Source: an uncultured Parcubacteria group bacterium (GTDB lineage Bacteria > Patescibacteriota > Minisyncoccia > Phycocordibacterales > UBA2100). From it: DNA of 57,273 bases. The position numbers and the translations under genes were made by a program. Numbering within the stretch: the stretch's first letter is position 1; every line of letters begins with the position of its first letter. The stretch lies in NCBI GenBank assembly GCA_947085915.1, contig CAMTYD010000031.1, forward strand, positions 1-57,273, given 5' to 3'. Below, piece after piece: positions 34,977 to 44,277 of this stretch. The notes beneath the pieces were generated by a model. The model saw nothing but the letters and a program-made list of their open reading frames with translations. It had not been told where the DNA came from and did not search any database.

Positions 34977-35654
34977 GTGCATATACTCATAGTCGAGGAT
35001 GAGGAGCAGCTCGCCAAGAACCTCAAGAAAATCCTGGAACTCAAGGGCTTCGGGGTCGATTGGCTGAATACTGCAGAAAAGGCCCGGACCCGCATACTTT
35101 TGTATCGCAACGAATACGACCTCATTCTCCTTGACTTCACTCTCCCTGAAATGAACGGTATGGAACTCACGAAGGGTTTACGAGCCGAAGGTATCACAAC
35201 ACCTATCATTATGGTCACCGGCCATAGCGATACAAAAAATAAGATAGAGGTGCTGAATTCCGGTGCCGATGACTACGTGGTAAAACCTTTCTCATCCGAG
35301 GAGCTCATCGCCCGTATGCATTCTGTATTGCGACGACCGACCGCGACGCAGCCTGTCATGCATACACTGGGGAAGCTCGTCGTAGACACTGCGGCACGCA
35401 GAGCACACATCGGAGACACGGAAATATCACTCACGCTCAAAGAATACGCACTTTTGGAGTGCTTTCTGCGACGTCCCAACGAAGTCCTCTCACGCGAGGA
35501 CTTGTACAATCAAGTGTGGGATTTCAGCACACTCTCATGGAGCAACGTGCTCGATGTGCACATGAAGAATCTTCGAAAGAAACTTGAGCCCGCAGAGCAT
35601 TCTCTCCGCTTCGAGACGATACGCGGAGCCGGATATCGCCTCGTCATATCCTGA
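34977..35654 (+). CDS. OmpR-family response regulator (receiver plus winged helix)
   Basis: ILIVEDEE, LDFTLPEMNG and the C-terminal trans_reg_C pattern (VRGAGYRL). GTG start. No adjacent kinase. Confidence 0.9.
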   Translation: MHILIVEDEEQLAKNLKKILELKGFGVDWLNTAEKARTRILLYRNEYDLILLDFTLPEMNGMELTKGLRAEGITTPIIMVTGHSDTKNKIEVLNSGADDYVVKPFSSEELIARMHSVLRRPTATQPVMHTLGKLVVDTAARRAHIGDTEISLTLKEYALLECFLRRPNEVLSREDLYNQVWDFSTLSWSNVLDVHMKNLRKKLEPAEHSLRFETIRGAGYRLVIS

Positions 35655-35931: not shown

Positions 35932-35958
35932 GACGACGTACCTTCAAATCTATAACTC

Positions 35959-35986
35959 AAAACCCGCCTTGATTGAGGCGGGTTTT
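35959..35986. terminator. Bidirectional intrinsic terminator
   Basis: AAAACCCGCC-TTGATTGA-GGCGGGTTTT between convergent genes. Confidence 0.7.
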
Positions 35987-36000
35987 GAGTCGGAACACGC

Positions 36001-36546
36001 TTACGCCAGCAGTTCCTTGAGACGCTTGTTACCTGAAAGGATTCGAGCTTCTTCTTCGCACCATTCTGAAAAGGCATTTCTCTCTGCATTAACTTCTTCT
36101 AGAAAAACACCCCACGCTACCCAACGTACCGCTTCAACCTCTTCAAGGTTCGGCTTTGGCTCTTCTTCTGTCATGCCGACGAGAATCGGACAAATCTCAT
36201 TCTCCATCACCCCAGTGCGCACGAAGGTATATCGATAGGGTGCGACCTCTTCGATAGTAATCGCTTCCATGCGGAGCTCATGAGAAAGCCGGCGCTTCGC
36301 CGCATCAACATTCGACTCATGTAAGCCCGGGTGACCGCAGACGCTATTGGACCAAGCAAGCGGCCACGTCTTTTTGGTATGACTCCTTTGCTGAAGCAAC
36401 AGCTCTCCTTTTCTATTGAAAAGAAACAGAGAGAATCCCCGGTGGAGTGGCGTCGAGGCACCATGCACCAAAGCTTTGGGCATGGTGCCGAGGATGTTGT
36501 TCTCTTCGTCTACCAGAACGACTTCCTCTATCGATTGATGGTTCAT
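36001..36546 (-). CDS. idi: Isopentenyl-diphosphate delta-isomerase, type 1 (Nudix)
   Basis: HRGFSLFLFN..GELLLQQRS..K..WPLAWSNSVCGHP and E..ICPI motifs. ATGA overlap with the upstream gene. Confidence 0.85.
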   Translation of the reverse strand: MNHQSIEEVVLVDEENNILGTMPKALVHGASTPLHRGFSLFLFNRKGELLLQQRSHTKKTWPLAWSNSVCGHPGLHESNVDAAKRRLSHELRMEAITIEEVAPYRYTFVRTGVMENEICPILVGMTEEEPKPNLEEVEAVRWVAWGVFLEEVNAERNAFSEWCEEEARILSGNKRLKELLA

Positions 36547-37460
36547 ACCGAGGCGCCTGAAAGTCCGGGTACTTTCTTTTTCAAAGAAACAACGAGAGAA
36601 GACGCGTCTTCATTCACCACTATGTGGTCAAAAAGATCTTTCCGTTCTCCAAAGAATGCGAGATCCCGTTCCGCGTTCTTGAGACGGTCGTGAATATTGT
36701 CTTCTGTCTCACGTCCGCGCGCGCGAAGCCGGTGAAGAAGTTGACTCAGTCGTGCCCGCTTGCTCCGTCCTGGCGGAAGAAGTCCGAAGGAAAGAACCGA
36801 GCGACGGCCATAGTGACGCGCAAGACCCTGGAGAAGCCCCATCTCTGTGACGACAAGCGGGATTTTCCCTTTGTTCCAGATTGCCTCGATATCCGTACTC
36901 CGGTATCCATACTGACGATTCTCGGTAGAAGACGGTATCCGCGTCACGGCGACGATAGACCCCGCCTTTTGCATGCGTTCAAATTCGGTCTCGGTTGTAT
37001 ACAGGTATTCTCCATCGTCACCGGGTTTTGGAGCGCGCGTAGTCAGGATTGGCACTTTAGCAGCATAGTCGGAACACGCATGCGCAAGCATGGTCGTTAT
37101 TGTCGACTTGCCCACGCCGGAGGGTCCGGTGAACGCGAGGATGTACCGGGAGAACTTCTGTGGAATCTCCACAGTGACCGTCGCTTCATACGCGACTTCG
37201 TATACACGGAGACCCTCTTCCGTCACGTGGGAGAGGCGCATGCGCGGGCGTACCTGTTGTCCGATGAAGGGTTCGTCAGAGATGAGCGACCCGAGAACCC
37301 GGCGACCATTCTGTAATTCAATAAGACCGATCTGTCTCGGCCGCCTGCCGAAGCGCGCAGGCGGGTGTGCGAGTGTCGTGAATGACATAACGATTCCGGG
37401 GAGCTGTTTTTCTTGTTCGCGCTTCTGCGCGCGGTGGACGATAGGTGCGGAGTAGCTCAT
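36543..37460 (-). CDS. Fusion: DUF35-type OB-fold domain (N-terminal, no zinc ribbon) plus guanylate-kinase-like P-loop kinase (C-terminal)
   Basis: The N-terminal ~100 aa show a DUF35 OB-fold-like pattern (GIVMSFTTLAHPPARFG...IGLIELQNGRRVLG...IGQQVRPRM). The C-terminus has GPSGVGKST, LTTRAPKPGDDGEYLY, YGY and a GK-like lid. ATGA start/stop overlaps with thiolase and idi. Confidence 0.7.
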   Translation of the reverse strand: MSYSAPIVHRAQKREQEKQLPGIVMSFTTLAHPPARFGRRPRQIGLIELQNGRRVLGSLISDEPFIGQQVRPRMRLSHVTEEGLRVYEVAYEATVTVEIPQKFSRYILAFTGPSGVGKSTITTMLAHACSDYAAKVPILTTRAPKPGDDGEYLYTTETEFERMQKAGSIVAVTRIPSSTENRQYGYRSTDIEAIWNKGKIPLVVTEMGLLQGLARHYGRRSVLSFGLLPPGRSKRARLSQLLHRLRARGRETEDNIHDRLKNAERDLAFFGERKDLFDHIVVNEDASSLVVSLKKKVPGLSGASV

Positions 37461-38581
37461 ACGTTTGTATTTTCTAGAATATGGATACCACAAGTCGCGC
37501 CCGCACCGCCGAAATTGTGGGCAAGACCATATCGCGCCGATGTACGCTTGAGACTCTTGCCGATATCGATGAGTTGCTTAATGCCGGTGGCCGCAACGGG
37601 ATGACCGCAGGCCTTCAGTCCCCCGCCCATGTTTACAAAAAGCGGTGTGCGACCCGCAAAGAGGTCTTCATAAATCGTAATCCCCTCTCCTTTTTTTGCA
37701 AATCCCAAATCCTCCATGTTGATAACAGCGGCGATGGAGAAGCAGTCATGCGTTTCGAGCACGCGTATATCTTTTCGTTCGATGTCCGCTTCTCGCAGAG
37801 CCTGACTCATCGCCATGCGCGTCGCGGGGAAACTCACAATAGTCGGCCTCTCAGTGATACTGAGGGTATCACTTGCAATCTGGCTTGCGGCGAGGCGCAT
37901 ACCGCTCGTATGCGTAGTTGAAAGGATACAGGCAGCAGCTCCGTCGCTAATCGGTGAACAGTCGAGGAGGCGGAGCGGGTCGGATACGAACGGACTCGCG
38001 GTTACCGCTTCCGGAGAAAGCTCATGCCGGAACTGCGCAAAAGCATTCTCCGTCGCGTTCTTGTGGTGCACCGAGCTCACGATACTCAGCTGTTCGCGTG
38101 TGAGACCGAATTCGTACATATACCGCTTAGCGATGAGGCCAAAAATCCCGGGAAACGTGAGTCCGGATGGAGCGTCGAGCTCACTATCAGCCGCCCCCAT
38201 CAAGGCCTCTGAAATAGCATCACTCGAGGCATCGGTCATCTTTTCTACACCGAGCACGAGGACGGTTTTTGCCCGGCCGCTTTCGAGAAATGCACAGGCT
38301 GTATGAATCGCGAGCGCGCCCGAACCACAGGCTGCCTCAACCCGCAGTGCAGGCGGATGATGAGGCAAAAGCGACGAAGCGAGTGCCGCAATGTGCGCCT
38401 GATTATTCGTGGCTTCAGAGAGCATATTTGCAACAACGACGAGGTCGATATCACGTGCATTCAGCTTGGATGAGGCGAGCGCCGCTTCGATGGCTTCACT
38501 CATCAAATCGCGCAGACTTTTATCCCACCACTCGCCAAAACGCGTAAGTCCGGAACCAGCAAGAAAAATGTCTTTTTGCAT
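37457..38581 (-). CDS. Thiolase (archaeal-type acetyl-CoA acetyltransferase)
   Basis: Active-site Cys context (VEAACGSGALA) and a C-terminal H..G.GG.CG pattern. Start set to ATG 38581, just after the hmgS stop. Confidence 0.85.
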   Translation of the reverse strand: MQKDIFLAGSGLTRFGEWWDKSLRDLMSEAIEAALASSKLNARDIDLVVVANMLSEATNNQAHIAALASSLLPHHPPALRVEAACGSGALAIHTACAFLESGRAKTVLVLGVEKMTDASSDAISEALMGAADSELDAPSGLTFPGIFGLIAKRYMYEFGLTREQLSIVSSVHHKNATENAFAQFRHELSPEAVTASPFVSDPLRLLDCSPISDGAAACILSTTHTSGMRLAASQIASDTLSITERPTIVSFPATRMAMSQALREADIERKDIRVLETHDCFSIAAVINMEDLGFAKKGEGITIYEDLFAGRTPLFVNMGGGLKACGHPVAATGIKQLIDIGKSLKRTSARYGLAHNFGGAGATCGIHILENTNV

Positions 38582-38585
38582 ACGA

Positions 38586-39617
38586 TTATACGGAAAGTGC
38601 TCCGGAGTGTTGTAAGTACTGACTGTAATCCAAGTATGCGTGCTCACGGCTGTCTACGGGGAGAGACTTTCCGGTCTTCAATGCGGTCATGAGGACGGCA
38701 TCGCATCCCGAACCTGATCCGTAAGAAACGAGGAGAATTCGTTGTCCTTTTTTTATCTTCTCGAGCACTGAGACGAGTCCGATGAGCGAACATGCGCTAT
38801 AGGTGTTACCGATGGTAGGGACAACAAAGCCGGCACTCATTTGCTCCTTCGTGATGCCGAATTCCTTGGCGATGCGCATCGGAAATTTTGCATTGGGCAT
38901 GTGGAAGACGACGTGATCAATTCCCGGCAATTTCACCTTCCATGCCGTGAGAGCTGCTTTGATTGTCTCGCGAACGTGTTGGAAATAGCCGGGCTCTCCG
39001 GTAAATCGGCCCGCGTGACGCGGATAGGATTCTCCTTCCGCCCGCCAAAAGTCCGGAGTGTCTGTTGTATATGAAAGTGTCTTTTCTATGCGGCAGAGAG
39101 CGTTTTTGTGTGTCGCCGACCCCAAGAGAAATGCCGCGGCACCAGCCGCCGCTGTATATTCGAGCGCATCACCCGGTTGACCCTGGGCAGTGTCCGTCCC
39201 AACCGCCAGACCAAAACGAACTTGTCCGCTTCGGACAAAGCTGTCGATAATCTGAAGACTCGCTGTCCCCGCTTTACAAGCGAACTCTAAATCTGCTGCA
39301 TGCGAAAAAGGATTCAACTTCAGTGCCGATACAAGCATGCCGCTCGTCGGCTTTACTGCATAGGGATGAGACTCCGACCCGACGAATATCGCGGAGACTC
39401 GAGACGGCGGGACGCGTGACACCTCGAGAGCGGTCCGCGCCGCTTCAAACGCCATGGTGAAACTATCTTCTCCCACTCCCGCGACCGATTTCTCCTCCAC
39501 ACCAAGACCTGCCAGAAGCGCCTGCGCATCCTGCTGCCAATGACGTGCGATGTCGGATGTACGAATACGATATTTTGGCAGGTACACGCCGAAGCCGAGA
39601 ATTGCTGAGTGGCCCAT
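38586..39617 (-). CDS. Hydroxymethylglutaryl-CoA synthase (archaeal/short type)
   Basis: ILGFGVYLPKYRI..., Cys context ACKAGT, ~343 aa. Adjacent to the thiolase as in archaeal loci. Confidence 0.85.
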   Translation of the reverse strand: MGHSAILGFGVYLPKYRIRTSDIARHWQQDAQALLAGLGVEEKSVAGVGEDSFTMAFEAARTALEVSRVPPSRVSAIFVGSESHPYAVKPTSGMLVSALKLNPFSHAADLEFACKAGTASLQIIDSFVRSGQVRFGLAVGTDTAQGQPGDALEYTAAAGAAAFLLGSATHKNALCRIEKTLSYTTDTPDFWRAEGESYPRHAGRFTGEPGYFQHVRETIKAALTAWKVKLPGIDHVVFHMPNAKFPMRIAKEFGITKEQMSAGFVVPTIGNTYSACSLIGLVSVLEKIKKGQRILLVSYGSGSGCDAVLMTALKTGKSLPVDSREHAYLDYSQYLQHSGALSV

Positions 39618-39626
39618 AGAAATATG

Positions 39627-39655
39627 AGTATACCCCGTGAGATACCGACTCTCAA
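39627..39655 (-). promoter_or_regulatory. Putative promoter of the hmgS-thiolase-kinase-idi operon: TTGAGA-17 nt-TATACT, with the spacer filled by TATCTCACGGGG
   Basis: Minus-strand reading. The -10 box ends 9 nt before the hmgS ATG. The motif copy occupies 39629-39644. Confidence 0.5.
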
Positions 39656-39681
39656 AATTGTTGTTGCGGAGAAAAACTCAT

Positions 39682-39697
39682 TATCTCACGGGGTATA
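39682..39697 (+). promoter_or_regulatory. Inverted second copy of TATCTCACGGGGTATA
   Basis: Perfect 16-nt inverted repeat with 39629-39644, separated by 37 nt. Confidence 0.5.
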
Positions 39698-39732
39698 GCA
39701 AATACAGGCTGTGCTTAAAACAGCAAACCTCA

Positions 39733-40887
39733 TCAACGCGCGAGCCTCGTATGCGCGCGCGCGAGCGTGTTCGTAGATTGAGCAGCGAGAAGGGATATCT
39801 CCCCCGCTAGGATTGCTCCCGCGATAGTCTCCGCGAGTTGCGCGGAGGGCTTCAGGTGTGTTTTCGCCCGCAGAACTACATCCAAACACTGTTTTTGAGC
39901 AGGAAGATTTGTTCCGCCTCCTCTTACGCCTACGAGTAAGGCGGGAATCTCCACCTTGATTCGAATACCGCCCTCGTCTTTACTGAGTATCGTATCTGCG
40001 AGCGAGCCCTCCACCACATGCGCCGCGTCTTGCCCCGTCGCGAGGTACAGTGCGGAGACGATGTTTGCGACATGCAGATTTTTTCCCAAAGCGCCCGAGA
40101 TTTCCGACCCGACCTCCAATTTTGCATGAGCCGTCTTGAGGAGTGCCTCCGGATTCGATTTCAAGACATCGCGAAGAATCTCTTCGGGAAGAACGGCTTC
40201 TGCGCTTACGCGGTATCCCCGGCCGTGCGTTTTCGTCCGCACACTCGGCTTCTTGTCACTATCCACATTGCCCGCCACCGTGAGCATGGTGATATGCAAT
40301 TCGCCGGAAAGAAATTCTCCAATTGCCTGAGCAGCTATCGTGACCATATTCATGCCCATCGCCTCATCAGTATCTGCCGCAATAGTGAGGAAGAGGACGT
40401 CGTCTTTTGTATCAATTTCATAGGAAAGTATCTTGAGGTGCTCGCTCGTCGCCTCTCCAACCTTTCTCCATTCAGATTCGAGTCTGCGAATGCCCGCGGA
40501 ACTCACCTCCGCATCGTTCGTCTCGAACGCAATCGAGCGGGTTATACCGATGTACTCGGACGAAATACGCACACCGCCTGCCGCTGTTAGCGCTTTACAG
40601 CCGCGATTAACGCTTGCGACAAGTGCGGCTTCGGTCGTGGCAACAGGTAGATAGACAGCATGTGCCTCTCCCGAACTGAACATTATCTGAAGCGGACCCG
40701 CGAGACCCACGGGTATCGGAACCGCCCCGAACATCTGCTCGCAGTTTCTTTCGTCCGCCGAGCCAAGTTGCGCAGGTACCAACGCGAGCGCCGATAGCTC
40801 TACGCCCAGCTCCTGCTCAATCATCGCGCGTCGTTTGGCCACCCGATCATCTCCACCTTGCTCTGCGCTAAAGTTGCGTAAATCCAT
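39733..40887 (-). CDS. HMG-CoA reductase (class I-like catalytic domain, no membrane anchor)
   Basis: CEQMFGAVPIPVGLAGPL and DAMGMNMV motifs. Confidence 0.85.
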   Translation of the reverse strand: MDLRNFSAEQGGDDRVAKRRAMIEQELGVELSALALVPAQLGSADERNCEQMFGAVPIPVGLAGPLQIMFSSGEAHAVYLPVATTEAALVASVNRGCKALTAAGGVRISSEYIGITRSIAFETNDAEVSSAGIRRLESEWRKVGEATSEHLKILSYEIDTKDDVLFLTIAADTDEAMGMNMVTIAAQAIGEFLSGELHITMLTVAGNVDSDKKPSVRTKTHGRGYRVSAEAVLPEEILRDVLKSNPEALLKTAHAKLEVGSEISGALGKNLHVANIVSALYLATGQDAAHVVEGSLADTILSKDEGGIRIKVEIPALLVGVRGGGTNLPAQKQCLDVVLRAKTHLKPSAQLAETIAGAILAGEISLLAAQSTNTLARAHTRLAR

Positions 40888-40909
40888 ACAGCTCGATTAT
40901 AGCCAACAA

Positions 40910-41929
40910 TTACGCTATCCGTGACCCTGCCCCAATCTTGGCTTCAAAGATGATGCAACCCTCCTGCGCATGCGCAAAAGTGCGTACGGATGGCAGCGCA
41001 CTTTCTTCGCACACGAGGTGCACGGTGGGACCGGCATCCATCGTGTACAAAACAGCCAAATCTTCACGGGTTCGGAGTGCTTCTATGTCGCGAATGATGC
41101 GATGTGTCTCTCCACTCAGATAATCGAGCGAGGGACTGCTCGAGCGCATCACCGCATGCATATCCAGGCAATCTTCTTCAGACACTTGCTGTAGTTTTTG
41201 AAAATCCTTTGCTCGAATCGCTTCGATACACATTTTTTGCCGTCGGGGAATGTCACGCAGCCGCGCCTCGAAAAGCGGGCTCGTATGCGCGAGCGCATGA
41301 CCCTCAGTCGAGCCTACCGACTTCTCTTTCTTGGTCGGCACGACGATGACATCGTGCAGTACCCAGTGATTCTGCGGAGCTACCTCCTCGGCGTATGACG
41401 AATCAATCTCCTCGCCTGCCCCCGCTACCATCGCGACAAATCCGCCAAAGACGCTGCGGCTGGCAGAGCCGGACCCGAGACGGGCGAGAATACTCACATC
41501 GCGGCGCGATATACCTTTGACAAACCCTCCTGCGGTGAGCTTGTCGAATCCGGCGTACGCTTCCGCCAGCGCACTAAAGACCGCCGAAGACGATGCCAGC
41601 CCGATACCCGGAGGGATTTTTGAGCGAATCTCGAGAGAAACAGATGCGGGAAGTGCCTGAGTCGCACCAATCGTATTCAAATATTCTTTTGCGGCAACGA
41701 AATGTTTTTTCAGTCGTGCCGTCTCCCGCTCGCTAAGCATTCGTGCAGCACCGTCCGGTTCAAAACTTCGAGCAGAAAACTCATCTGCGTGCTCGACCAT
41801 CACTTCGACTACGGGTTGGTCGAGCGTCATTGAGAGCGAATCTGCGGCCGGCAAACGGAGCATTTCATTGCGGTTGCCCCAGTACTTGATAAGGGCGATG
41901 TTTGGTGCGGACGTAGCGCGAATAGACAT
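40910..41929 (-). CDS. Mevalonate (di)phosphate decarboxylase, GHMP family
   Basis: APNIALIKYWGNR N-terminus and GLASSS motif. Substrate (diphospho- or phosphomevalonate) cannot be told from sequence by eye. Confidence 0.8.
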   Translation of the reverse strand: MSIRATSAPNIALIKYWGNRNEMLRLPAADSLSMTLDQPVVEVMVEHADEFSARSFEPDGAARMLSERETARLKKHFVAAKEYLNTIGATQALPASVSLEIRSKIPPGIGLASSSAVFSALAEAYAGFDKLTAGGFVKGISRRDVSILARLGSGSASRSVFGGFVAMVAGAGEEIDSSYAEEVAPQNHWVLHDVIVVPTKKEKSVGSTEGHALAHTSPLFEARLRDIPRRQKMCIEAIRAKDFQKLQQVSEEDCLDMHAVMRSSSPSLDYLSGETHRIIRDIEALRTREDLAVLYTMDAGPTVHLVCEESALPSVRTFAHAQEGCIIFEAKIGAGSRIA

Positions 41930-41931
41930 AA

Positions 41932-42783
41932 TCAGAGTGAGATTGTAGGCATATTTCTCCGGTACGCAATTTTCAGAATCTCTTCCGGGTTACCGAGTGC
42001 AAGCACCATACCCGCGCCGCCCGTGCGACTCCCCGCACCAATAACCTTGGCCGCGCCATCAATCTGCTCAATAGCGGCAATCAGTTCCCGGATGTCCGGT
42101 GGTACAACTCCGAGTGCTATTTGAGCCTTGTTGTGCTCACGCATCACGAGAGGCAATGATTCGCCTTCGATAAGCCGATGAGTGCACCTATCAATTGCTT
42201 CCAAAGAGTCTTGAACTTCCTTCTCCCGACCTCGCATCCATGCGACAAGCTCTGTCGTAGACTCTCCCGGAAATCCTGTATCGATGAGGATTGCCTGATG
42301 TAACAACCCTGAGGATATGTCGATGCGTTTTGGGCCAATACTTTTAGCGAACACGACGGGCGTATTCTCCCAAATGACGGCGAAGTCGAAGCCGCTGTGT
42401 CCGGGATTCAAGACATCCTCAATCTCCAGAGCTGCGACGCGGGAGTCTTCTCCCAGGAGTGCACGGGTTACGGCGATAATAAGTGCAGTTGAGGAACCCA
42501 TCCCCTTTCCCAGAGGAACATCTGCGTGAATGCTCAGCTTGCCGGATAATTCCGGATTCTTCCTTTGGCACAATCCCACAATCTTTTCCAAGTACGGTTG
42601 CCACATCTCCCCTCCCCTCCAATCTATGTCGATTCTTTTAGAGGCGGCATCTTCCTCACATACCGCTTGTACCCCCAAAGAAGAAGGTAGGGCGAGCCCT
42701 TGGTACCCGAAGAGCACCGCGTACTCACCGGACAGAATAATTTTGCCTGGCGCGAAGGAGGTGCGATTCATACTCAGTTTCAT
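41932..42783 (-). CDS. Mevalonate kinase (short GHMP kinase)
   Basis: APGKIILSGEYAVLFG and PLGKGMGSSTA motifs. Confidence 0.8.
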   Translation of the reverse strand: MKLSMNRTSFAPGKIILSGEYAVLFGYQGLALPSSLGVQAVCEEDAASKRIDIDWRGGEMWQPYLEKIVGLCQRKNPELSGKLSIHADVPLGKGMGSSTALIIAVTRALLGEDSRVAALEIEDVLNPGHSGFDFAVIWENTPVVFAKSIGPKRIDISSGLLHQAILIDTGFPGESTTELVAWMRGREKEVQDSLEAIDRCTHRLIEGESLPLVMREHNKAQIALGVVPPDIRELIAAIEQIDGAAKVIGAGSRTGGAGMVLALGNPEEILKIAYRRNMPTISL

Positions 42784-42842
42784 TTACTTTACAGGAATCT
42801 TTGGCTCAAGGATATGTTCTTTGCTATCATTCGAAGCATCCT

Positions 42843-43529
42843 ATGAGCGAAACTCCCCACATTCCCGCCTGCATTGGGATTATTCTCGACGGTAATCGCA
42901 GATGGGCGAAAGAGAACGGACTCGCTTCCTTCGAGGGTCACCGCCGGGGAATGGAAAATATTGAGCCAATTGCTCTTGCGGCACGCGACATGGGAATACA
43001 GCACATGGTCGTGTATGCCTTTTCCACGGAGAATTGGAATCGCGCCAAAGAAGAGGTTTCGTATCTTATGGAAATCTTTGAGTCGATGGCACGGGAAGGT
43101 CTGGCGAAATACAGAGATGAGGGTATCGCCGTCCGTTTCGTGGGTCAAAGAGACCGCTTCTCTCCAAATCTCCAAGCTGCGATGCGGGATGTCGAAGCTA
43201 AAAATCCCCAGAATCCCAAGCTGACCTTGTGGATGTGTATGTCATACGGCGGCAGAGCGGAAATCGCACAAGCGGCGCAAGCCGCGTCACAATCAGGTGA
43301 TGCAATGAGTGAAGAGTCTCTCGCGAAGCACCTGTGGACGGCTGGGATGCCCGACCCCGACCTCATCATCAGGACGGGCGGAGAAAAGCGCATCTCCAAC
43401 TTCCTCTTGTGGCAAGGTGCATACAGCGAATTATTCTTCGTCGAACCATACTGGCCTGCTTTTACAAAAACAGATTTAGAAGGCGTTCTCAAAGAATACG
43501 CTCAGCGCGAGCGTCGGATGGGTAAATAA
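42843..43529 (+). CDS. uppS: Undecaprenyl-diphosphate synthase (cis-prenyltransferase)
   Basis: IGIILDGNRRWAKENG, FSTENWNR and RTGGEKRISNFLLWQ motifs. Divergent from the mvk operon. Confidence 0.9.
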   Translation: MSETPHIPACIGIILDGNRRWAKENGLASFEGHRRGMENIEPIALAARDMGIQHMVVYAFSTENWNRAKEEVSYLMEIFESMAREGLAKYRDEGIAVRFVGQRDRFSPNLQAAMRDVEAKNPQNPKLTLWMCMSYGGRAEIAQAAQAASQSGDAMSEESLAKHLWTAGMPDPDLIIRTGGEKRISNFLLWQGAYSELFFVEPYWPAFTKTDLEGVLKEYAQRERRMGK

Positions 43530-43537
43530 GAAACGAA

Positions 43538-43569
43538 AGAGCGCCGCGGTTTCCTACCCGCGGCGCTCT
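43538..43569. terminator. Hairpin terminator (12-bp stem) between convergent genes
   Basis: AGAGCGCCGCGG...CCGCGGCGCTCT. Confidence 0.6.
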
Positions 43570-43599: not shown

Positions 43600-44277
43600 T
43601 TAGCAGCGAGAACTGCTCAACATGTTGTGCCGAAGCTGGGCGAGCCTCTCCTCCAGAGAGCGCGGCCAGCATTGGAGCATGCCTAATTTTTCCAGCGTGT
43701 GCCAAGTCCATGCGAGAGCGGCCGCATTGTCCATCAGGAAAAGTTCAGCACGCTTGACGAGCAATTGGGCCAGCTCAACCCTCTGGACCGATTGGGTAGA
43801 AAGGCTGCCGCCCTTGCAGTCGACTCGCATGTAGCGTTTGCCCCTATCGGCGACAATCGCGAACTTGCCGTCGGAGATAGCGACGAGCTGGTGTTGGTCG
43901 TGAGTGCTCCGTCCGCCAATCTGCACAAACGCCGGGTGCAGTGTTTCGAGTCCTGACCACGCATTTTGGACTTCCGGAATATGCGAGCTTACCCCAGGGT
44001 CAAACTCCAACCTGAACGTCGAGAGCGAAAGGAGGGCTCCAGGCCACTTAGCGCGCCCAATTATCGCCTTTCGACCTTCAGATTCGTGCGGTGCGCCCTC
44101 GAGAAGCAGGCCGTTGCTGATTCTCGGATAACTCTCAGCGTGCTGCCTGAAGTCGAGCACCTGGTGACGTTTATCGTTCGGAGGTCCGACTCGCACGCTT
44201 GTGGTGGTTGCACCCTCCATGCCGGGAGCGATTTCGCCGGACGGGCAGAGCCTATAGATATTGGCTGTAGCGGTCAT
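43600..44277 (-). CDS. Hypothetical protein (225 aa), no family recognised
   Basis: Long ORF with ordinary composition, flanked by terminators. Confidence 0.55.
   Translation of the reverse strand: MTATANIYRLCPSGEIAPGMEGATTTSVRVGPPNDKRHQVLDFRQHAESYPRISNGLLLEGAPHESEGRKAIIGRAKWPGALLSLSTFRLEFDPGVSSHIPEVQNAWSGLETLHPAFVQIGGRSTHDQHQLVAISDGKFAIVADRGKRYMRVDCKGGSLSTQSVQRVELAQLLVKRAELFLMDNAAALAWTWHTLEKLGMLQCWPRSLEERLAQLRHNMLSSSRC

Follow-up and report, generated by a model that had tools for sequence, protein, structure and literature searches.

A mevalonate locus of a Kaiserbacteria-like bacterium encoding a guanylate-kinase-fold candidate for isopentenyl phosphate kinase

The mevalonate locus and its host

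The window analysed in this study is the whole of contig CAMTYD010000031.1 (57,273 nucleotides), one complete contig of a 786-kb genome (G000) that is divided into 59 contigs and is 91% complete. The host is a Kaiserbacteria-like bacterium of the Candidate Phyla Radiation (CPR; Patescibacteria), and the closest named relatives of the window proteins are found in Kaiserbacteria/Paceibacterota and Peribacteria/Peregrinibacteria. The window carries a mevalonate pathway locus, whose minus-strand genes are arranged in the order mvk-mvd-hmgR, followed by hmgS, a thiolase gene, a gene encoding a fusion of a DUF35-type OB fold with a guanylate-kinase-like (GK) domain, and idi. The GK domain of this OB::GK fusion is the best candidate for an isopentenyl phosphate kinase (IPK) that is otherwise missing from the pathway.

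The gene set, strands and coordinates of the initial annotation, including the plus-strand uppS that diverges from mvk and the type 1 (Nudix) idi, were all reproduced by the open reading frame (ORF) listing and family scans (Table 1). The spacing is 2 nt for mvk/mvd and 22 nt for mvd/hmgR, and the 115-nt gap between hmgR and hmgS holds a promoter-like TTGAGA-17-TATACT site. ATGA overlaps, which had been reported for several junctions of the second operon, are present at two of the three (thiolase/fusion and fusion/idi), whereas hmgS and the thiolase gene are separated by 4 nt if the latter starts at ATG 38581. The ATG at 42843 is the more likely start of uppS.

The adjacency of HMG-CoA synthase (HMGS), thiolase, and DUF35 is archaeal in type, as had been stated. 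The hmgS product is matched strongly by the archaeal-type models and gives only 121 bits to the bacterial model TIGR01835, and the family profile of the fusion matches, in its OB part, the DUF35 chain of the archaeal thiolase/HMGS complex (6ESQ_E; E = 8e-4). The initial annotation presented this archaeal flavour as notable; however, such a layout is ordinary for CPR and is not new, because it has already been published for them (Hoshino & Gaucher 2018, PMC6107057). That study described CPR bacteria with archaeal acetoacetyl-CoA thiolase (AACT) and HMGS, class I HMG-CoA reductase (HMGR-I), type 1 isomerase (IDI-I), and cis-prenyltransferase synteny. Its CPR clusters were listed with mevalonate kinase (MVK), phosphomevalonate kinase (PMVK), diphosphomevalonate decarboxylase (DPMD), and sometimes IPK, and IPK was found to adjoin IDI even in CPR lacking other mevalonate genes. 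A second study (Anantharaman et al. 2016, PMC4736985) reported a "near-complete" pathway in closed Peribacteria genomes, with genes leading to mevalonate 5-phosphate and then again from mevalonate 5-diphosphate onward.

Table 1. Features of the mevalonate locus, with window positions and supporting matches
Feature	Position	Strand	Basis
13-bp inverted repeat CTCAAAACCCGCC/GGCGGGTTTTGAG just 3' of the idi stop	35957..35989	-	read from the sequence; not flagged by the consensus scan
idi, type 1 (Nudix) isopentenyl-diphosphate isomerase	36001..36546	-	NF002995 194 bits, TIGR02150 130 bits, both above cut-off
DUF35 OB::guanylate-kinase-like fusion gene, 305 residues	36543-37460	-	PF01796 and PF00625
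Guanylate-kinase-like P-loop domain, fusion residues 100-305	36543..37163	-	PF00625 43 bits; TIGR03263 77-78 bits against a cut-off of 160
DUF35-type OB fold without zinc ribbon, fusion residues 1-99	37164..37460	-	PF01796 31 bits, above cut-off
Archaeal-type acetoacetyl-CoA thiolase	37457..38581	-	NF004720 383 bits; NF053570 (Methanothermococcus acetyl-CoA acetyltransferase) 344 bits
hmgS, archaeal-type HMG-CoA synthase	38586..39617	-	NF003274 426 bits, TIGR00748 394 bits, both above cut-off
Promoter-like site TTGAGA-17-TATACT upstream of hmgS	39627..39655	-	consensus scan, 10/12 matches; a sequence likeness, not functional evidence
hmgR, class I HMG-CoA reductase	39733..40887	-	PF00368 300 bits; TIGR00533 (NADPH class) 284 bits against 30 bits for class II TIGR00532
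MVD-family decarboxylase with YWGNR and STEGH signature (tentatively MPD type)	40910..41929	-	TIGR01240 187 bits; alignment to 6N0X/6N0Z
mvk, divergent mevalonate kinase (predicted), 283 residues, GHMP kinase	41932..42783	-	PF00288; PDB matches; tree
uppS, cis-prenyltransferase, divergent from mvk	42801..43529, probable start 42843	+	PF01255 256 bits; TIGR00055 230 bits, above cut-off

Pathway gap, decarboxylase and kinases

The initial annotation had found neither a second GHMP kinase nor an IPK in the locus; the same holds for the whole genome, whose only two GHMP genes both lie inside the locus. Searches of the genome detected no GHMP phosphomevalonate kinase (PMK; no TIGR01220 match and no member of the b (PMVK) clade described below), no amino-acid-kinase-type IPK above the cut-off, and neither IspG nor IspH of the methylerythritol phosphate (MEP) pathway. 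AcnX (PF04412) and UbiD (PF01977) gave no match in this genome or in four related genomes. The single amino-acid-kinase (PF00696) gene is ProB-like (219 bits to TIGR01027) and reaches 44 bits against the IPK model NF040647, the cut-off of which is 120. This kinase has 251 residues and no PUA domain, and its gene adjoins that of glutamate dehydrogenase on contig C11 (locus L003 1501-2256); no PyrH-type UMP kinase was detected by PF00696 in the genome. A separate gmk gene is present on contig C20, and its product scores 142 bits against TIGR03263, compared with 78 for the fused GK domain. The gap in the pathway is thus real.

The initial annotation had regarded the route from mevalonate 5-phosphate as unassignable, and placing the MVD-family protein by its diagnostic residues now allows a tentative assignment. 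The window decarboxylase has Asn at the position of Lys21 (YWGNR) and His at that of Met196 (STEGH). Lys21 is invariant in mevalonate diphosphate decarboxylases (MDDs or DMDs) and replaced in mevalonate phosphate decarboxylases (MPDs or PMDs) (Table 4 of Dellas et al. 2013, PMC3857490). In the PDB alignments, 6N0X, identified in PMC9254496 as the phosphomevalonate decarboxylase of A. thermophila, differs from its deposited variant 6N0Z at two sites, YWGN to K and STQGH to M. The window decarboxylase agrees with 6N0X at both, whereas the true DMDs in the same alignment output have Lys and Met. PMC9254496 states that mutagenesis by Thomas et al. 2019 turned the PMD specificity into DMD specificity. 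Residues of the A. thermophila enzyme are also shared at the six active-site positions of Table 4, in addition to position 196. Among CPR, Asn and His are found in all six of the fusion-associated MVDs examined, and Lys in all seven from genomes with neither canonical IPK nor fusion. A second, b-type GHMP kinase accompanies the latter in 6/6 genomes checked. The three MVDs read beside a canonical IPK (G019, G380, and G084) have Gln, Met, or Arg at position 21. On this residue signature, we tentatively treated the window enzyme as MPD-type, which would place decarboxylation first and a kinase second. Overall similarity to 6N0X (180 bits, compared with at most 134 for DMDs) was rejected as a diagnostic. 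In a control, a Lys/Met-type CPR MVD also matched 6N0X/6N0Z best, at 313-319 bits, and therefore only the residues are diagnostic.

All PDB matches of the 283-residue GHMP kinase are mevalonate kinases, and its score to TIGR00549 (74 bits) is under the cut-off of 163. To compare it with other CPR kinases, about 30 CPR loci were fetched and annotated against the window proteins. Counts of PF00288 matches per genome were too noisy to stand in for PMK content, as MVDs also match this model weakly; locus-by-locus annotation and a maximum-likelihood tree of 31 rows with MVDs as the outgroup were used instead. In this tree, the 283-residue clade groups with the "a" kinases and with four of the five sole kinases of the IPK-bearing (type II) genomes (support 98/99). 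The fifth (G019) is sister to that clade (81/94), and the "b" kinases fall outside. An MPD supplied by only one kinase must receive its substrate from a mevalonate kinase, and we therefore assigned the 283-residue protein as the predicted MVK and the "b" kinase as the predicted PMVK. A PMVK identity for the 283-residue protein, considered on account of its GEYAVL motif and its place in the hybrid clusters described below, was rejected on the basis of the tree. With an MPD-type decarboxylase and the 283-residue kinase among the MVKs, the missing enzyme would therefore be an isopentenyl phosphate kinase.

The annotated CPR loci fall into three types (Table 2). HMGS itself is present in 23 of 400 other Patescibacteria genomes and in none of 20 from the order or class of the window.

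Table 2. Types of mevalonate cluster among the annotated CPR loci
Type	GHMP kinases	MVD position 21	IPK or fusion	Genomes
I	"a" and "b", MVK-like ("a" confirmed in 5)	Lys (motif read in 7/7)	no IPK	G200, G288, G367, G188, G292, G035, G090
II	one "a" kinase	Gln/Met/Arg (motif read for G019, G380, G084)	canonical IPK above cut-off	G019, G380, G084, G205, G238, G060
III	one divergent kinase of the 283-residue type	Asn, with His 196	OB::GK fusion, no IPK	window, G366, G287, G244, G443, G455

In type III, the fusion gene directly follows the thiolase gene, which could not be confirmed in G443, where the contig ends at HMGS. Three hybrid clusters, L033 (G410), L034 (G417), and L009 (G301), keep the 283-residue MVK and the fusion, and a cassette of a "b" kinase and an MVD with Arg21 replaces the MPD-type gene. 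The cassette has the same orientation in the two from the genus of the window and is inverted in G301, and the swap appears to have taken place at least twice. The nearly complete, Peribacter-like genome G002 (L010, G002:C1:28000-43000) keeps idi, uppS, mvk, hmgR, hmgS, the thiolase gene, and the fusion; no MVD homologue, AcnX, or UbiD was found anywhere in it.

The guanylate-kinase-like domain as a candidate IPK

About 550 homologues share the OB::GK architecture, with identities of 56-88%. In an AlphaFold2 model built on a 49-sequence alignment (predicted local distance difference test score of 88), a disordered linker (residues 97-103) joins an OB barrel to a guanylate kinase fold. The best Foldseek matches are guanylate kinases (1GKY and 9JAF; TM scores of 0.85-0.88), and the top 50 fold matches include no animal PMK structure. 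In the DUF35 part, which has no Cys motif and no PF12172 match, the zinc ribbon is missing and only the OB part is present. The GK domain is 24-27% identical to guanylate kinases and has a four-residue insert. The nearest non-CPR sequences belong to ordinary gmk genes, with identities of at most 33%.

When the family is mapped onto yeast Guk1, the P-loop (GPSGVGKS), Arg38, Tyr50, Tyr78, Arg135, and Arg146 are kept, and the position of Arg41 is Lys or Arg in all aligned members but one. We take the P-loop, the lid arginines (Arg135 and Arg146), and the Arg/Tyr residues to be the catalytic and acceptor-phosphate-binding sites of Guk1, and Ser34, Glu69, Ser80, and Asp100 to be its guanine-binding residues; these roles were reportedly described by Stehle and Schulz in 1992. 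Three of the latter positions are altered in every family member (Ser34 to Ile/Met, Glu69 to Ala, and Ser80 to Tyr), and the window domain has Ile, Ala, Tyr, and Glu at the four. Thr34, Glu69, and Asp100 are present in the gmk product encoded on contig C20. The site of the GK domain thus looks built for adding a phosphate to a phosphomonoester other than GMP.

The distribution of the family was examined in three overlapping genome samples, and it was never found together with a canonical IPK. In the phylum sample (401 genomes), the GK family is present in 8 and canonical IPK in 22. Among 121 genomes of the Peribacter-like order, 87 have the GK family and none has an IPK above the cut-off; HMGS is present in 83 of the 121 and is accompanied by GK in 81. 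The genus of the window (41 genomes) has nine with the GK family, five fused and four stand-alone, and two with IPK. A GK domain without the OB fold was found in six genomes (G406, G421, G424, G558, G327, and G528), and in five of these (all but G558) a search of the whole genome gave no HMGS, MVD, or MVK. The stand-alone gene adjoins idi and uppS in G406, G421, and G424, which belong to the genus of the window, and is near uppS only in G528; no mevalonate genes were seen near it in G327. The G406 locus, with a 4-nt overlap between GK and idi and a divergent uppS, equals the window locus minus the stretch from mvk to the OB fold. An isopentenyl phosphate kinase gene beside idi and uppS would be just the arrangement already described for canonical IPK in CPR that lack the other mevalonate genes (PMC6107057).

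From the observed gene content, domain architecture, fold, residue patterns, and distribution, we infer a substrate for every enzyme of the locus. Acetyl-CoA would be converted to HMG-CoA by the thiolase and HMGS, for which the DUF35 OB domain would serve as the dock, and class I HMGR would reduce HMG-CoA to mevalonate. The 283-residue GHMP kinase would then form mevalonate 5-phosphate, and the MVD-like enzyme would decarboxylate this monophosphate to isopentenyl phosphate. Finally, the GK domain would transfer a phosphate from ATP to isopentenyl phosphate, and the resulting isopentenyl diphosphate (IPP) would be used by IDI and UppS. In docking the thiolase/HMGS pair, the OB domain may tether the last kinase to the first enzymes. 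We therefore hold, with moderate confidence, that the locus probably specifies a full alternative mevalonate pathway that follows the haloarchaeal/Chloroflexi logic, in which the last step would be carried out by a non-homologous, guanylate-kinase-fold IPK. To our knowledge, phosphorylation of isopentenyl phosphate has so far been known only from an unrelated enzyme family, and our literature search found no paper that describes such an enzyme or links guanylate kinase/DUF35 fusions to IPK.

The GK domain might instead be a nucleotide kinase or a regulatory or inactive module, with isopentenyl phosphate being phosphorylated by a promiscuous enzyme such as the C11 ProB-like kinase or the mevalonate kinase. 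The proximity of the domain to guanylate kinases in both sequence and fold, and the weak IPK-model match of the only amino-acid-kinase-family gene, would be in keeping with this. However, every member has substitutions at the presumed guanine-binding positions and retains the catalytic and phosphate-binding residues unchanged, a separate gmk is present, and the conservation across the family argues for a selected enzymatic function. In addition, three fusion-bearing genomes (G002, G244, and G366) have no amino-acid-kinase match at E 1e-5, and none of the 121 order genomes passes the IPK cut-off. The ProB-like kinase was rejected as a hidden IPK because it is not conserved among fusion-bearing genomes, and we consider the promiscuous-enzyme explanation as a whole unlikely.

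It is somewhat less likely still that the GK domain is a P-loop phosphomevalonate kinase, analogous to the animal enzyme, and the MVD an ordinary DMD of the classical route. Conversion of mevalonate 5-phosphate to mevalonate 5-diphosphate would also suit a family that phosphorylates phosphomonoesters. TIGR01240 labels the MVD as a diphosphomevalonate decarboxylase with a score above the cut-off, and the hybrid clusters join the fusion to MVDs with a basic Arg at position 21. Against this, positions 21 and 196 of the MVD are Asn and His, whereas Lys and Met occupy them in all true DMDs (PMC3857490). The stand-alone GK genes beside idi/uppS occur in genomes without MVK and MVD, and a PMK, having no substrate there, would therefore be useless. 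The GK family is complementary to IPK and not to the PMVK-clade kinase, with which it coexists in the hybrids. An animal-type PMK fold for the domain was rejected, as it was not among the top fold matches.

A comparably low probability is given to a kinase acting on another prenyl phosphate (dimethylallyl, geranyl, farnesyl, or polyprenyl) in the recycling of a prenyl carrier, and not in the last mevalonate step. Canonical IPKs accept several short prenyl phosphates, and uppS and idi are the constant neighbours of GK in reduced genomes. Nevertheless, without an isopentenyl phosphate kinase, no IPP would be made in genomes with MVK and an MPD-type decarboxylase; the fold is a soluble one, and the acceptor site, remodelled by Ile, Ala, and Tyr, seems to be small. 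Lastly, although the genome is fragmented and incomplete, it is very improbable that the gap is an assembly artefact with a standard PMK or IPK in the unassembled part (about 9%), as the same IPK-less gene set is present in 87 of 121 related genomes, many of which are 97-100% complete and some in 1-5 contigs, and the same gap exists in the published closed Peribacteria genomes (PMC4736985).

Several points weigh against the assignment of the GK domain as an IPK. The MPD call rests on two residues, since Lys-type CPR MVDs match 6N0X best too and overall similarity is non-diagnostic. The GEYAVL motif of the 283-residue kinase is more typical of phosphomevalonate kinases. Because the hybrid clusters hold both a PMVK-clade kinase and an Arg21 MVD, the GK domain would be redundant there, and G002 has the fusion but no MVD homologue. 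The GK family occurs in only two lineages, a Peribacter-like family and one Kaiserbacteria-like genus, which leaves few independent events behind its mutual exclusivity with IPK. The substrate roles of all family members are predictions.

A broader proposal, which we put forward only tentatively and with some doubt, is that the GK-fold protein is a new, non-homologous IPK with two uses: fused, it would tie the last step of the pathway to the first, and alone with IDI and UppS, it would serve isoprenoid salvage. In the latter use, host-dependent relatives without other mevalonate genes might scavenge isopentenyl phosphate or isoprenol and make their undecaprenyl carrier lipid from it. In G416, also of the genus of the window, a canonical IPK lies beside uppS and a small Nudix-domain ORF (L044 7045-7518). 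A homologue of this ORF, recognized by eye and with no Pfam match at E 0.01, is located between idi and GK in G421 (L031 7932-8396). The small Nudix protein may be an IPP/isopentenyl phosphate phosphatase partner of the kinase.

The mevalonate cluster is patchy in the Kaiserbacteria-like genus, with the fused form in 5 of 41 genomes, and in a comparison with loci L007-L011 and L036 the window cluster proteins score far higher to Peribacteria homologues than to other CPR. These two observations suggest lateral transfer of the cluster between two CPR lineages.

On the flanks of the locus, the inverted repeat 3' of idi is likely to be the operon terminator. A perfect 12-bp GC-rich hairpin (window 43538-43569) between the end of uppS and a convergent ORF (43600-44277; 225 residues, no significant family match) looks like a bidirectional terminator. 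An OmpR-type response regulator with no adjoining kinase gene is encoded at 34977-35654, just downstream of the idi end. The G421 locus (L031), which of the genes of the window locus has GK, idi, and uppS only, has an ORF of response-regulator size in the corresponding position; by appearance, its N-terminus resembles a receiver domain.

Relation to known pathways and enzymes

Variants of the mevalonate pathway have repeatedly been uncovered through "missing" enzymes, such as IPK, MPD, M3K, and AcnX/UbiD. If the proposed function is true, a P-loop IPK of the guanylate kinase fold would be a further non-orthologous replacement and would close the gap reported in 2016 for closed Peribacteria genomes. 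Among the roughly 550 proteins of the family, named members carry "guanylate kinase" or "OB-fold domain-containing protein" as automatic labels, which would then be corrected. The stand-alone GK genes beside idi/uppS bear on the supply of isoprenoid precursors for cell-wall synthesis in ultra-small symbiotic bacteria, and a compact, soluble isopentenyl phosphate kinase of another fold could serve engineered isoprenoid pathways.

The order of steps proposed here, a kinase, decarboxylation of the monophosphate, and a second kinase, is the same as in the alternative mevalonate pathway (Dellas et al. 2013, PMC3857490; Vannice et al. 2014). In that pathway, the last kinase has the amino-acid-kinase fold (PF00696), whereas the window genome has none of the IPK type and instead has a GK-fold domain fused to DUF35. 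The classical MVK-PMK-DMD pathway employs a GHMP PMK and a decarboxylase with Lys21/Met196, neither of which is found in the window genome, and the dehydratase and UbiD-type decarboxylase of the archaeal pathway (AcnX, UbiD, and IPK) were not found in it either. With the CPR clusters described earlier (PMC6107057), the window shares the archaeal-type thiolase and HMGS, class I HMGR, type 1 IDI, and cis-prenyltransferase synteny. It differs from them in having one GHMP kinase, a putative MPD-type decarboxylase, no PMVK or IPK, and the OB::GK fusion, which is absent from that paper. A bare-OB DUF35 without a zinc ribbon is present in the window and in at least one other CPR cluster (G200, L012).

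The same HMGS-thiolase-DUF35 gene adjacency is known for the archaeal thiolase/HMGS/DUF35 complex (Vögeli et al. 2018; PDB 6ESQ). In that complex, DUF35 has an N-terminal zinc ribbon, whereas the DUF35 of the window lacks the ribbon and has a C-terminal kinase added. The phosphomevalonate kinase of animals, like the GK domain in its proposed role, is a P-loop kinase that acts on a phosphomonoester of the mevalonate pathway; the two have no detectable similarity beyond the P-loop class and differ in their inferred substrates. The animal enzyme, of the P-loop nucleoside monophosphate (NMP) kinase fold, is a precedent for a P-loop kinase in place of a GHMP kinase. Guanylate kinase (Gmk/Guk1, EC 2.7.4.8; 1GKY) reads guanine through Ser34/Glu69/Ser80, whereas the GK domain has Ile/Met, Ala, and Tyr at these positions and scores far under the TIGR03263 cut-off. 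Both have in common the fold, the P-loop GPSGxGKS, the lid arginines, and the Arg/Tyr residues for the acceptor phosphate, and the chemistry proposed for the GK domain, conversion of a phosphomonoester to a diphosphate, is the same as that of guanylate kinase.

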